From positions 608,001 through 672,000 of the forward strand of contig OY970332.1 in the NCBI GenBank assembly GCA_963717435.1: DNA of 64,000 nt. Reading direction: 5' to 3'. This stretch comes from an uncultured bacterium. GTDB taxonomy: Bacteria; Babelota; Babeliae; Babelales; Babelaceae. The position numbers and the translations under genes are program-made. This document shows, one piece after another, positions 14,084-60,480 of this stretch. The notes under the pieces were generated by a model, which was not told where the DNA came from, searched no databases, and was given only the letters and a program-made list of their open reading frames with translations. Numbering within the stretch: position 1 is the stretch's first letter; every line of letters starts with the position of its first letter.

Positions 14084-14314
14084 CATCCCTCGTCGATACA
14101 CCCGTCACCTGATCCCGCGCTCGCCCTGAGTGTTTTTCGAACAAAGTGAGAAAAATGTATCGAAGGGTGCCAGACACAGCGGGACGAGCGGTATATAACC
14201 GCAACAACACGCCCAACTGACTAAGAATCAGAACTCAAAACTTAGATTAACACGCCGCTCGTCCCGAGTGTTTTTTAAGCGCATTGCGCGAAAAAAATGT
14301 ATCGAGGGATGCGG
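14084..14314. repeat. Family-A palindromic repeat cluster: minus unit 14084-14191 with nested plus unit 14118-14167, and plus unit 14255-14314
   Basis: CCGCTCGTCCCGAGTG...TGTATCGAGGGATG and its reverse complement; same ends seen in valS, prmC, gpmI, murE. Confidence 0.9.
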
Positions 14315-14316
14315 TG

Positions 14317-15513
14317 TTAAGTTAACTTATAAAATTTGTGTTTGCCCACTTTTAAGTGCATACCGTCTTTAAGATTAACCACAGCTTTAAAGTCAGTTAT
14401 TTTTTCACCGTTGAGCGTCACCGCTCCTGCTTCGATTAGTCTTTTTGCGTCAGAAGAGCTCATCTTGGGATCTAAAAATCTTAAAAAATCAACTATCCAA
14501 GTGGGTTTGTTTGCAAAATCTCCAAGTGCAATATACTCAGCGTGTTCGAAGCTTCCATCACGTTTCTGGAACAATTCTTCAAACGAGATTTTTGCCTCAT
14601 CTGCTTCAGGCTTTGACCAAAATCTTTCTACAATATCATGCGCCATAGATTTTTTTAGATCCATGGGATGTATTTTCCCTGAAGATATTTCTTGCTTCAT
14701 AGAAGCTATTTCTTTTTTTGTTTTATTTAATAATAACTCAAAATATGTCCACATAAGATCGTCAGAGATTGACATAAGTTTTCCAAAAGCAGAGTTTGCT
14801 GGCTCAAACAGGCCCACATAATTGCCATAAGATTTGGACATTTTTTGAACGCCATCAAGCCCAACCAATAGTGGCATAGTGATAACAACTTGGGGTTCTT
14901 GGCCGTATTGCTCTTGCAGATATCTTCCCATCAAATTATTAAAAGTTTGGTCAGTACCGCCAAACTCAATATCAGAATGTAGAGCCACAGAATCGTAACC
15001 CTGCATTAATGGATATAAAAGTTCGTGGAACCCAATTGTAACTTTTTCTTTTAATCTTTTTTCAAAGTCGTCACGCTCAATAATTCTTGAGAGAGTAACT
15101 TTGCCACAAAGTTTAACAAAATCTTTTATTGTTAATTTATCCAGCCATTCACTATTTCTTACTATTTTTGTTTTTTTAATATCTAATATTTTGCCAACTT
15201 GTTCTATGTAAGTTTTTGCATGCTCTTCAATTTCTTGTTCAGTCAGCGCAGGACGTGTTTTTGATCTTCCTGTTGGGTCGCCAATTCGAGCCGTAAAATC
15301 ACCAATAATTAAAATTATTTCATGCCCGTAATCTTGAAAAACTTTTAATTTAGAAAGCACAACAGCATGACCAAGATGTAAATCAGGAGATGTAGGATCC
15401 ATCCCAAGTTTAACTTTTAAGGGTTTGTTTTTAGCGAGTTTTTTTTCAAGTTCACCAGCGGGCAAAACTTCATGCGCCCCGGCGATCAATTTTTCCAAAT
15501 TTTGTTCTATCAT
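14317..15513 (-). CDS. tyrS: Tyrosine--tRNA ligase
   Basis: DPTSPDLHLGH, GGTDQ, KMSKS, C-terminal S4 domain. Confidence 0.97.
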   Translation of the reverse strand: MIEQNLEKLIAGAHEVLPAGELEKKLAKNKPLKVKLGMDPTSPDLHLGHAVVLSKLKVFQDYGHEIILIIGDFTARIGDPTGRSKTRPALTEQEIEEHAKTYIEQVGKILDIKKTKIVRNSEWLDKLTIKDFVKLCGKVTLSRIIERDDFEKRLKEKVTIGFHELLYPLMQGYDSVALHSDIEFGGTDQTFNNLMGRYLQEQYGQEPQVVITMPLLVGLDGVQKMSKSYGNYVGLFEPANSAFGKLMSISDDLMWTYFELLLNKTKKEIASMKQEISSGKIHPMDLKKSMAHDIVERFWSKPEADEAKISFEELFQKRDGSFEHAEYIALGDFANKPTWIVDFLRFLDPKMSSSDAKRLIEAGAVTLNGEKITDFKAVVNLKDGMHLKVGKHKFYKLT

Positions 15514-57615: not shown

Positions 57616-58965
57616 ATGAATCTTATGAATATTAACGTCGACCAGATAGACAGGCTGATACAAGCAACCAACGACTTTTTGTGGGGTTGGCCATTAATAA
57701 TATTTTTTGTTGGAGCGGGTCTTGCTGCAACTTATATGCTAAATTTTGTTCAGATAAGATATTTTGTGGCAAGCTGGAAGCTATTATTGTTTCCTGAAAA
57801 AAAGAACACAAATGGTCATATGACACAAACTCAGGCTTTTATTAATGCGCTTAATACAAGTATTGGTAACGGTAGTTTGGCTGGTATGGCAGTTGCTGTG
57901 AGTCTTGGTGGTCCAGGTGCAGCATTTTGGATCTTTGTACTGGGTATTTTTAGTTTGGTTATTAGATATTGCGAAGTTACATTAAGCAATATGTTTCCTG
58001 GAGCAGTTGGCAAAGATGGCGTTCTTGGTGGACCAATGGTTTACCTACAAAAAGTTCCGGGCGGAAAAGCTCTTGCTTATGGTTACGCATTTTTCTGCTT
58101 GATGCTAAGCTTTTTCAGCGGCAACTCTATGCAATGTAACTCGGTTAGAATAGCACTTCAGCGCGTAGTTAATATCGACACGACAATTATAGCTTTGATT
58201 CTTTTTGCTTTTGTAATTTACGTTATGCTTGGTGGAGCAAAAAGAATCATATATTTGTCCGAGAGAATAGTGCCAATAAAAGTTGGTTTGTTTTTCTTGA
58301 GCGCGATAATAATTATTGCTTATAATTATGCAGGCATATTTGATGCGTTAAAATTAATTGTTACAAGTTCATTTGGCTATGAACCATTGGTTGGCGGTGC
58401 GATCGGATATTCTATGATCGAGGCTCTGCGCTACGGTGTTTCTATACCATTAAATGCAACGGAAGCGGGACTTGGTACGGCTGCAATATTGTTCGGTTCA
58501 ACCGGTAGCAAGAGCCCTGTTGAAGATGGCATAATGTCTATGGTATCAGCTTTTATTAGTAATTATCTTGTTTGCTTTGTCTTGGCGTTTAGTTTCGTTT
58601 TAACAGGAGTTTGGAACTCTGGGTTGCCAAGTATAGCGATCACCGTTGCTTCTTATGAAACAGTTTTCGGTGCTTTTGGCGGCATGATTGTAACATTCTT
58701 GTCCGTAGCATTTGGTATTGGTGTATTGGTTTCTTATGTATTTATTGCCCGTGAATGTTGGTCATTTTTGACAAAGGGCAGATGGCTAACGGCGTACGCT
58801 GTTACTTACTGCTTATTTGCACTTGGCGGTACAGTTCTGGAAGCAAAAGTTGTTTGGAACTTTATAAACGTTGTTAATGCGGGTCTTTTGGCAATTAATC
58901 TTTATGCGATTGTTATGTTGTTGCCTAAGATTGCAAAAGAGCTTAAGGCTTACGAGAATAAATAA
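57616..58965 (+). CDS. Alanine/glycine:cation symporter (AGCS/AlsT family)
   Basis: IGNGSLAG, GGPGAAFW, GGPM.Y, EAGLGT. Confidence 0.92.
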   Translation: MNLMNINVDQIDRLIQATNDFLWGWPLIIFFVGAGLAATYMLNFVQIRYFVASWKLLLFPEKKNTNGHMTQTQAFINALNTSIGNGSLAGMAVAVSLGGPGAAFWIFVLGIFSLVIRYCEVTLSNMFPGAVGKDGVLGGPMVYLQKVPGGKALAYGYAFFCLMLSFFSGNSMQCNSVRIALQRVVNIDTTIIALILFAFVIYVMLGGAKRIIYLSERIVPIKVGLFFLSAIIIIAYNYAGIFDALKLIVTSSFGYEPLVGGAIGYSMIEALRYGVSIPLNATEAGLGTAAILFGSTGSKSPVEDGIMSMVSAFISNYLVCFVLAFSFVLTGVWNSGLPSIAITVASYETVFGAFGGMIVTFLSVAFGIGVLVSYVFIARECWSFLTKGRWLTAYAVTYCLFALGGTVLEAKVVWNFINVVNAGLLAINLYAIVMLLPKIAKELKAYENK

Positions 58966-58971
58966 CTAAAC

Positions 58972-60480
58972 ATGAAAAAAATATTTAAAGTTGCCTGTCA
59001 CACGGATAACGTGGGGGCAGGCACAACATTTGTTGCAATAAACGGAACAAAAGAAAACGGGAATATTTATATTCCCGTTGCTATTGAAAAGGGTGCCACA
59101 AAAATTGTTGTTGAATCTGGAAGTGAGATTCCTGAAAACATTCTTGAGTTAATTAAAAAATCTGGGGTTTTGTTTGAATTTGTAGAAAACTCTCGAAAAG
59201 CTTTGGCTGAAATCAGTGCCCGCGAATATAACTATCCTGCAAAAAAACTTAAAATTGTTGGTATTACGGGAACCAAAGGCAAAACGACAACAACTTTTTT
59301 AACGGAATTTATTTTAAGATCTTCTGGTTATAAAACTGCGCTATTGAGCACAGTTAAAAATATTATTCTGGGAGTAGAATATCCAACAAAACTAACCACT
59401 TGTCAGCCCGATTATCTTAATAATTTTTTACAAGAATGTGTTGATGCCGGTGTTGAAATTGTTGTTATGGAAGTCGCTGCTCAGGCATTTTCGCTTTATA
59501 GAGTTCATGGTATTGATTTTGAGATTGGCGTGTTTACCAATTTTAGCCAAGAACATGCAGAGTTTTACAGTTCAATGGACCAGTATTTTGCTGCAAAAGC
59601 GAAAATTATTGAGCATCTAAAGCCCGGCGCGCCATTAATAATTAACTCTGATGATTCTAAAGTTGCGACTTTAAAAAATAATTATAGTAACTGCTTTGAT
59701 TTTTCTTTAAGCCCCGATTCTTGTTCTAAACTATCTGCAAAAATAATTAAGTCTGATTTGTCCGGTTTGGAGTTGGAAATACTTGCTACCCCGATACATG
59801 CCAATTGTGTTGGATGTGATTGCGCATCTCGAGACCGCTCGTCCCGAGTATTTTTCGAAAGCGAAGCTGAGAAAAAAGTATCGAGGGATGGCGTCAAAAT
59901 AACCTCGCCGCTAGTTGGCAAATTTAACGCCCAAAATATTCTTGCAGCAACAAGTATATGTTTAAATTTAGGCTTAAATTTTGAGCAGATTAAATTGGGC
60001 ATAAAAAACTTTTCTCGCGTTTCAGGAAGACTTGAAAAATTTATTATAAAAAATGGCGCGACTGCGATTATCGACTACGCCCATAACCCAGCATCAATTG
60101 AGGCGGTTTTGTTGGCGCTAAGACCATTTTCAAAGCATTTGATAGTTCTTACAGGTGCCGGAGGTGATCGGGATAACACCAAGAGATCTGTAATGGGAAA
60201 AATATCTTCTGAAATAGCTGATATTTTAATTTTAACTTCTGATAATCCAAGATCTGAAGACCCAGAAAAAATTATAGATCAGATTATGCTTGGGGTTTCG
60301 CATGAAAATATTAAAAAAGTTTATCGTGAAACTGATCGTGAAAAAGCTATTAAACTAGCATATTCTCTTTCTGGCCCTGAAAGTACAATAGTTTTGCTTG
60401 GCAAGGGTCCTGATGAGTACCAGATTATTGGAAACACAACTTACCCATTTAGCGAGACAAAAATACTTGAGTCTTTGTAA
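58972..60480 (+). CDS. murE: UDP-MurNAc-tripeptide synthetase (meso-DAP type) with in-frame repeat insertion
   Basis: GITGTKGKTT, MEV, DYAHNP, GAGGDRD, DNPR. Confidence 0.93.
   Translation: MKKIFKVACHTDNVGAGTTFVAINGTKENGNIYIPVAIEKGATKIVVESGSEIPENILELIKKSGVLFEFVENSRKALAEISAREYNYPAKKLKIVGITGTKGKTTTTFLTEFILRSSGYKTALLSTVKNIILGVEYPTKLTTCQPDYLNNFLQECVDAGVEIVVMEVAAQAFSLYRVHGIDFEIGVFTNFSQEHAEFYSSMDQYFAAKAKIIEHLKPGAPLIINSDDSKVATLKNNYSNCFDFSLSPDSCSKLSAKIIKSDLSGLELEILATPIHANCVGCDCASRDRSSRVFFESEAEKKVSRDGVKITSPLVGKFNAQNILAATSICLNLGLNFEQIKLGIKNFSRVSGRLEKFIIKNGATAIIDYAHNPASIEAVLLALRPFSKHLIVLTGAGGDRDNTKRSVMGKISSEIADILILTSDNPRSEDPEKIIDQIMLGVSHENIKKVYRETDREKAIKLAYSLSGPESTIVLLGKGPDEYQIIGNTTYPFSETKILESL
59788..59891. 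repeat. Family-A unit (59835-59891, plus) with decayed inverted partner (59788-59835) inside murE
   Basis: CCGCTCGTCCCGAGTATTTTTC...GAAAAAAGTATCGAGGGATGG; partner ACCCCGATACA...CTCGAGAC. Confidence 0.9.

Follow-up and report, generated by a model that had tools for sequence, protein, structure and literature searches.

The repeats described here, called family A, are hairpin-forming DNA elements found in a 64,000-nt stretch (the window; positions 608,001 to 672,000 of contig OY970332.1, assembly GCA_963717435.1) of an uncultured bacterium of the family Babelaceae, phylum Dependentiae. The host genome is a single contig of 1,198,203 bp with 34.6% G+C (labelled G000, sequence C1). An earlier note on the window had proposed that family A is conserved as a structure, and that a bulged hairpin of single-stranded DNA (ssDNA) or RNA is the recognised entity, as for the REP substrates of HUH enzymes. 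The structure is indeed conserved, and it is linked, both physically and in its occurrence across genomes, to the gene of a 94-aa GIY-YIG nuclease. The copies present in the window are the following, in window coordinates and with the scores of the covariance model presented below:

14116 to 14175, plus strand: family A hairpin with a CCCT/AGGG stem, intergenic, downstream of an open reading frame (ORF) ending at 14076; 55.9 bits, E 3e-14
14254 to 14317, plus strand: family A hairpin with a TCCC/GGGA stem, inner stem TTTTTT/AAAAAA and outer stem CACGCCGC/GCGGTG, intergenic; 52 bits
26689 to 26889, no strand assigned: valS block of 201 bp (67 codons), comprising both valS hairpins and an AT-rich spacer
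26700 to 26762, minus strand: family A hairpin with a TCCC/GGGA stem, antisense in valS; 38.3 bits
26821 to 26888, plus strand: family A hairpin with a TCCC/GGGA stem and inner stem TTCTTG/CAAGAA, sense in valS and in frame; 41.1 bits
39761 to 39860, plus strand (prmC on the minus strand): prmC copy of the second architecture, CCCC...GGGG, with a nested hairpin on either side of an uninterrupted GAGTGATGTATCG core
50940 to 50987, minus strand: family A hairpin with a CCCT/AGGG stem and inner stem GCCC/GGGC, sense in gpmI; 23.7 bits
59834 to 59896, plus strand: family A hairpin with a TCCC/GGGA stem, sense in murE and in frame; 45.3 bits

All six copies named in the earlier note are present, that is, the TCCC...GGGA copies at 14255, 26821 and 59835, the CCCT...AGGG copy at 14118, and the copies in gpmI and prmC, which have, respectively, a GCCC/GGGC inner stem and two nested hairpins. 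The antisense copy in valS is additional to these. The gpmI copy carries variant loop strands (GAATA/CATATCGA), and the prmC copy was missed by the covariance model in the window search. The leader motif of the family matches the window six times, against 0.01 matches expected by chance.

Anatomy and Copy Number of Family A

Copies were counted in the whole genome by means of two anchors, GCTCGYCCY and TATCGARGGR, with at most one mismatch in each, removing duplicates and spurious long pairs. This search yields 108 family A copies, and the core pattern gives 90 genome matches against 0 for a reversed-pattern control. From the outside to the inside, each copy is made up of an outer stem, a leader, a 4-bp stem, the strand GAGTG, an inner stem-loop, the strand NGTATCGA, and the return strands. 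The outermost stem varies by subfamily (e.g., ACACCCG/CGGGTGT, TTGGCCG/CGGCCAA, or CACGCG/CGCGTG). The 5' leader of the copies of this genome is CCGCTCG and is conserved, GCTCG being found in 100 of the 108. The 4-bp stem has the consensus YCCY/RGGR and appears as TCCC/GGGA (59 copies), CCCT/AGGG (26), CCCC/GGGG (6), TCCT/AGGA (2), TGCC/GGCA (1), and TACT/AGTA (1). As parsed, the GAGTG strand is found in 97 of the 108 copies, seven of the other 11 being parsing errors caused by a nested insert, and the opposite NGTATCGA strand is fixed, with the form TGTATCGA in 89 copies.

Outer and inner modules occur in many combinations among the copies. A second architecture, found in five genome copies including that of prmC, has an uninterrupted core, GAGTGTATCG, and hairpins at two other junctions. 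Moreover, seven to nine copies have an additional hairpin at the junction of the 4-bp stem with GAGTG; prmC has that module in the opposite orientation. The extra module, of about 33 nt and GC-rich, always occupies the same junction (genome positions 395948, 404139, 469612, 477126, 509298, 882093, and 1098637; window 39761-39860), a constancy that suggests site-specific nesting of one palindrome within another. In a further arrangement, copies of the CCCT-type subfamily are nested, inverted, in the loop region of a larger copy with a TGGT/ACCA stem. These nested sites lie, in genome coordinates, around the following positions:

44230
291271
622119 (window 14118)
810378
815353
1119514
1135326

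Hairpins with a TGGT/ACCA stem also flank the nuclease gene in G183, G184, G096, and G188 (G numbers denote genomes of the 261-genome set of the phylum).

Conservation of the Hairpin Structure

The co-variation of the stem, which had been put forward from a handful of window copies, holds at the scale of the genome. Of the 108 copies, 95 have only Watson-Crick pairs in the 4-bp stem, with six pair types; a G.T pair is present in two others and a single mismatch in 11. The claim that the inner parts differ in sequence and fold nevertheless was borne out as well: in the 101 copies free of nested inserts, the arms occur in 23 combinations and form 571 Watson-Crick and 3 G.T pairs, and the contiguous inner stem reaches 5.68 bp with a copy's own arms versus 2.68 bp (standard deviation 0.15) when arms are permuted between copies. 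Likewise, pairing of the outer flanks is stronger within a copy (-7.38 kcal/mol) than with permuted partners (-6.18 kcal/mol, standard deviation 0.17).

An independent alignment was built from loci of other genomes, starting with 32 copies of exactly 52 nt, from which four with a nested insert and one spurious copy were removed. The resulting 27 copies, from nine other genomes and all of the same length, align without gaps. In this alignment, 98.5% of the 270 cells are paired and all ten pairs change on both sides; its covariation score was reached by none of 500 shuffles, and in a control in which the partner was slid by one to three columns, pairing falls to 41.5-59.6%. A covariance model derived from it, and thus containing no sequence of the host genome, recovers six window copies and 113 genome matches at E<=0.01. 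It has to be noted that the GA/TC pairs and the 2-nt GA bulge fall in invariant columns of the alignment, so covariation is neutral on the bulge, speaking neither for nor against it. The folding of single copies as DNA gives weak support, with z-scores from -0.28 to -3.10 over six window copies, two of which reach -2.9 or below (the copy at 14254..14317 has z = -2.92). With co-variation in both stems and invariant loop strands, these data support the view that the conserved entity is an oriented, asymmetric hairpin rather than a stem sequence.

The leader CTCG can also pair with a CGAG that spans the 4-bp stem and GAGTG, and this competing mini-hairpin is often favoured by the DNA energy model. 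It is found in the window at:

14248 to 14322: CTCG/CGAG competing pairing
26815 to 26892: CTCG/CGAG competing pairing
59828 to 59900: CTCG/CGAG competing pairing

Kink-turn (tandem G.A pairs) and hammerhead-like readings of the loop strands, drawn from the sequence alone, were dropped as unsupported.

A GIY-YIG Nuclease Gene Flanked by Family A Hairpins

The genome contains one gene for a 94-aa GIY-YIG protein, located outside the window (G000:C1:1066108-1066389; Pfam GIY-YIG, 9.9e-17). A family A hairpin lies 31 nt upstream of it in the sense orientation and another 26 nt downstream, inverted, with both leaders pointing outward. The solved chains nearest to the protein are the UPF0213 proteins 1zg2 and 1ywl (E 1e-14), and no NCBIfam family scores above its cut-off. 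Its residues Tyr17 and Glu64 stand at the same numbers as residues mutated in the published nuclease SsnA of Neisseria meningitidis, a 94-aa protein with a single GIY-YIG domain (CDD cd10448, GIY-YIG_unchar_3) (Chenal et al. 2025, Nat Commun, PMC11893778).

The layout hairpin(+)-gene-hairpin(-) is found with the strict pattern in 15 of the 30 best homolog loci of the phylum, and on one side only in three more. Inspection of 11 of the 12 loci without a pattern match revealed variant hairpins on both sides in ten of them, either of the TGGT/ACCA type or with a short core, TCCTGAGCTTGTCGAAGGA, which is devoid of the inner stem. With a looser pattern, both flanks are occupied in 18 of the 30 loci, and in 15 of these 18 the same stem type is present on both sides. 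A tree of the 30 homologs, compared with the flanking stem types, gives no evidence of enzyme-hairpin co-evolution, the clustering of stem types following kinship; the tree itself is poorly resolved, with three of its 27 inner branches well supported.

Strong homologs (E<=1e-20) exist in 78 of the 261 genomes of the phylum, with up to six gene copies per genome. Among these genomes, 50 have at least four hairpins together with a strong homolog, 30 have such hairpins without it, 28 have the homolog without hairpins, and 153 have neither, which corresponds to an odds ratio of 9.1 (Fisher p 1e-13, uncorrected for phylogeny). The association extends to Nevskia soli, in which 88 pattern matches accompany a homolog of 56% identity that is flanked by the same hairpin class. 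The genomes of Neisseriaceae, Rickettsiales, and Legionella that were reached via chance loci contain weak homologs (37-43% identity) or none, and thus provide no direct bridge to the published enzymes.

A second small GIY-YIG subtype, of 79-82 aa and starting with MFYVY or MYYVY, is also encoded in the host genome (G000:C1:1023036-1023248 and 413544-413759, and a pseudogene at 200267-200425), as well as at loci L221, L222, L223, and L225. A tRNA gene is often adjacent to its genes, and GC-rich hairpin modules of the CGAAG/CGTAG type precede them. This subtype may partner other repeat families of this genome.

Distribution of the Hairpins

The core pattern is present in 156 of the 261 phylum genomes, single matches being mostly look-alikes in tRNA-Ser/Leu genes. 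At least four matches are found in 80 genomes, at least 10 in 49, and at least 20 in 26, with the reversed control remaining near zero. Within one genus, copy numbers range from 1 to 105. Inner stems are wholly different between genomes, and the leader varies too: it is CCGTTCG in relatives, GCATG in G084, and GTCGTT in a genome of the Fibrobacteria, TCATCC being another variant.

Genes resembling tRNA-Ser/Leu match the loose pattern (GAGTGG...GGTATCGAGGG), for example at G026:C1:920635-920691. It may be by chance that the loop strands resemble the D-loop and the junction of variable arm and T-stem in class II tRNAs.

The same core occurs outside the phylum, among the matches listed from species-representative genomes (at least 121 stretches). 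The stem filter removed 95 of the 126 pattern matches scored on those stretches, many of the 95 being tRNA-like; these data establish presence in other phyla and not a distribution. Counts over whole genomes gave 127 copies in a genome of the Dehalococcoidia, 88 in N. soli, 32 in a genome of the Fibrobacteria, and 86 and 22 in two others. Genomes of Dependentiae, Chloroflexota, Gammaproteobacteria, and Fibrobacteria contain the architecture at 20-127 copies.

Genomic Placement and In-Frame Copies

A crude longest-ORF map, in which the coding share is 88.5%, assigns 69 of the 108 copies to intergenic DNA and the other 39 to ORFs. Of the 69, 28 are found in convergent spacers, which account for 13% of intergenic bases. 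Where two hairpins are adjacent, 12 of the 17 pairs are inverted with leaders outward, which is the geometry of the nuclease gene unit. ORFs of 600 nt or more contain 24 copies (22%) at a depth of at least 150 nt, 16 of them sense and eight antisense.

The copy in gpmI coincides with about 30 extra residues relative to the solved phosphoglycerate mutase iPGM (4my4), and in murE the copy falls where about 28 residues are added, immediately before residue 310, in comparison with the solved MurE 2wtz. In the case of valS, a metagenome contig joins window position 26688 directly to 26890, skipping exactly the 201-bp block and restoring the frame (...KFAGLY|DPLNQW...). This joint comes from one contig listed under two runs (X1 and X2) with identical figures, which are probably the same data; its depth is 2.2, with 76 nt on the shorter side, and intervening letters between both sides are possible. 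The public DNA runs over valS cover it in shares of at most 0.13 and are informative only through this joint; for RNA, no run is listed over this stretch. The valS block constitutes one insertion/empty-site polymorphism.

Interpretation and Alternative Explanations

Taken together, the findings make it likely that family A is a class of hairpin repeats related to those of the Ssn system, in the sense of the Ssn-related motifs (SRM), partnered with the 94-aa GIY-YIG nuclease. SsnA binds its NTS hairpin solely as ssDNA; its cut falls in the variable flank, upstream by a few bases, and in vitro the enzyme is inactive on RNA, on double-stranded DNA, and on the reverse strand (PMC11893778). By analogy, the entity recognised in family A would most likely be the folded top strand as ssDNA. 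On this reading, each copy is an imperfect palindrome with a defined orientation, able to fold once its DNA is single-stranded. The enzyme would recognise the top strand in its folded form and nick ssDNA a few bases 5' of the hairpin, reading sequence in the fixed loop strands and the leader and using the stems as a scaffold. The outward leaders of the gene unit are the geometry to be expected if each strand were nicked 5' of its hairpin. We infer that the hairpin-gene-hairpin unit could behave like an insertion sequence, and that the solo and doublet hairpins, about 110 in number, would be its non-autonomous derivatives, which would have spread into intergenic DNA, into one another as nested modules, and in frame into protein genes. 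Signs of mobility are the range of 1-105 copies within one genus, the presence of up to six gene copies in a genome, the 12 of 17 adjacent pairs with the geometry of the gene unit, and the contig without the valS block.

A bolder version of this proposal can be entertained as a tentative possibility, namely, that hairpin(+)-94-aa gene-hairpin(-) is an autonomous transposable element of an undescribed class, mobilised via folded ssDNA, of which solo and doublet hairpins would be miniatures, with the GAGTG-GTATCGA loop as a preferred landing site and with routine in-frame colonisation of essential genes in the Dependentiae. If true, such a landing site would give rise to the nested modules.

Several observations weigh against a family A moved and read by this nuclease. 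To our knowledge, a GIY-YIG nuclease alone has no strand-joining activity. The leaders of the valS block point inward, so that simple excision by nicks 5' of each hairpin fails to explain this insertion, and no target duplication is seen at the block; the 108 copies also show no replication-strand bias (60/108, p 0.29). SsnA is reported to lose its activity when the palindrome is changed and the hairpin kept (PMC11893778), and as the host genome combines several stem types with only one gene, some of the copies need not be substrates. Hairpins and gene do not always go together: 16 of the 49 genomes with at least 10 hairpins have no strong homolog, including G038 (65 copies), G061 (63), G084 (53), and G100 (42), and neither does the Dehalococcoidia genome with 127 copies nor another with 86. 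A Pfam GIY-YIG search in five hairpin-rich genomes without homolog gave a different small subtype or nothing, the second subtype of 79-82 aa being the only small GIY-YIG type found in G038, G084, and G100; autonomous units were likewise absent among the sampled loci of G061 and G084. Conversely, 26 genomes have the gene and at most two pattern matches, which is partly explained by variant hairpins. Finally, the published degenerate SRM motif matches the host genome once, at a place that overlaps no family A copy; family A would thus be a hairpin class other than the one described by that motif.

The analogy with HUH enzymes drawn in the earlier note has to be considered in the light of these data. 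Elements of the REP/REPIN kind, moved by a RAYT or an IS200/IS605-type HUH Y1 transposase that reads a bulged ssDNA hairpin, would share with family A the imperfect palindromes, the inverted doublets, and the enrichment between convergent genes, and Y1 genes do exist in 94 of the 261 genomes of the phylum. However, the single-contig host genome has no match to PF01797 (Y1 transposase) and none to the TnpB family PF07282; Y1 genes are no more frequent in hairpin-rich genomes (18/49) than in the others (76/212); no hairpin was found within about 1.5 kb of six Y1 loci in the phylum or of ten weak ones in other phyla; and a Y1 match is also lacking in two genomes that carry 127 and 86 copies. Y1 genes neither flank the hairpins nor co-occur with them, and the REP/HUH Y1 reading, highly improbable, is largely refuted. 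From the original proposal, what stands is a structure-specific, single-stranded target, while the HUH enzyme falls and the RNA alternative is unlikely. The latter would make family A a set of functional structured RNAs conserved as RNA, such as 3' stabilisers, terminators, or a kink-turn-like protein-binding motif; covarying stems with a fixed internal loop are common in RNAs, and many copies lie just 3' of genes. Against this, orientation relative to the 3' end of the adjacent gene is near random (36/61, p 0.2), the copies within ORFs occur in both orientations, and G.U pairs are nearly absent (3/574). The Rfam search suggested in the earlier note, run on the window and on 17 copies from several phyla, returned no matching family: at gathering score, only a tRNA appears in the window, and the 17 copies gave chance hairpin matches far below threshold, with nothing real at E<=1. 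Taking also into account that the partner enzyme family has no RNA interaction in the published account (PMC11893778), conservation as RNA seems very improbable.

Another possibility is that the hairpins mainly serve a domesticated host system, in which the nuclease would cut adjacent ssDNA and control recombination or DNA uptake, most copies being old and immobile. Domestication of the IS-like NTS-ssnA-NTS layout has been proposed for Neisseria, and SsnA lowers transformation of N. meningitidis by NTS-bearing DNA (PMC11893778). In the host genome, the gene is present as a single copy, many hairpin-rich genomes are without it, and the window contains putative pilus-assembly-like ORFs beside prmC. 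In the opposite direction point the patchy copy numbers among close relatives, the several gene copies in some genomes, the matched hairpins that flank each gene copy, and the insertion polymorphism in valS, while the copies deep in ORFs are hard to square with a host design. Domestication is therefore considered unlikely as the principal explanation, although it is compatible with an Ssn-related family A and does not exclude it.

If family A is what we propose, the dense repeats of a host-dependent phylum would be placed in a system described only in 2025, which would be widened by them. New features are a GAGTG/GTATCGA hairpin class missed by the published search motif, which adds a second hairpin architecture, its spread through Dependentiae and other phyla, the nesting of modules, and the presence of 24 of the 108 copies deep inside ORFs. 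The natural variation of the repeats, with free stems, fixed loop strands, and tolerated loop insertions, amounts to a ready-made specificity map of the enzyme, and the in-frame copies in valS, murE, gpmI, and prmC point to a reshaping of essential proteins in reduced genomes. The gene-less genomes rich in hairpins and the inward leaders of the valS block make the multiplication of copies a testable question.

Other Features of the Window

Two identical insertion sequence (IS) copies encoding a 342-aa integrase-core transposase lie at window positions 10258-11286 and 30304-31332 on the minus strand. The inverted ends, some 26 nt long, have no relation to family A, and IS ends were discarded as a source of the family. 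A GC-rich repeat block at 31400-31470 (GCCAAGGCTTC... units) abuts the right IS end, and the same units appear elsewhere in the genome outside family A. In addition, a tandem run of six ORFs of 150-253 aa, apparently paralogous and with signal-peptide-like starts (MKK.F/IL...), occupies 19648-23398 on the minus strand.

Comparison with Known Systems

REP, BIME, and REPIN sequences are abundant imperfect palindromes, for which inverted doublets are the likely unit, with a single-copy RAYT gene flanked by repeats and recognition as folded ssDNA. Family A has the same imperfect palindromes, inverted doublets, and single-copy enzyme gene flanked by repeats, and ssDNA recognition is likewise proposed for it; it differs in its partner, which is a GIY-YIG rather than an HUH Y1 enzyme, and in its conserved tag and loop sequences. 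The GTAG- and CGTC-tagged palindromic repeats of Di Nocera et al. (2013) reportedly form REP-like superfamilies, each recognised by a brief conserved tag at an end of the hairpin; the leader of family A is CCGCTCG in the host genome.

Rickettsia palindromic elements (RPE) are palindromes inserted in frame in protein genes and kept as extra peptide segments. Family A resembles them, by layout alone, in having copies in frame inside protein genes of a small genome of intracellular type: 24 of the 108 copies are deep in ORFs, gpmI and murE have extra segments, and a valS allele without the 201-bp block exists. In the literature search, neither an account of repeats in this phylum nor a further paper combining SsnA and GIY-YIG in this sense was found.

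The closest system is that of Ssn and its SRM (Chenal et al. 2025). In that work, Ssn homologs of several phyla are flanked by SRM, extensions at the loop position are tolerated by SsnA, and alteration of the palindrome with the hairpin kept abolishes its activity (PMC11893778). Supplementary Data 4 lists an ssnA/cd10448 homolog in N. soli, an ssnA homolog together with over 100 SRMs in Rickettsia genomes, and, as the sole genome of the phylum considered here, Babela massiliensis, with 0 SRM and no homolog; the main text mentions neither Dependentiae nor TM6 (PMC11893778). Differences are evident. Family A has a 4-bp stem, the fixed asymmetric internal loop GAGTG/NGTATCGA, a further free stem-loop, and nested modules; in the 14 supplementary files, GTATCGA and GAGTG occur only within unrelated primers; and the 22% of family A copies deep in ORFs contrasts with the 2% reported for N. 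meningitidis. The likeness lies in a 94-aa single-domain GIY-YIG gene flanked on both sides by a hairpin repeat present in tens to hundreds of copies, in the orientation of the repeat and its conserved 5' flank, in the tolerance of loop extensions, in the enrichment in symbiont-like genomes, and in the co-occurrence of gene and repeats across phyla. In sum, family A shares with Ssn/SRM a many-copy hairpin found far above chance, a flanked GIY-YIG gene of about 94 aa, and the joint occurrence of the gene and its repeats.

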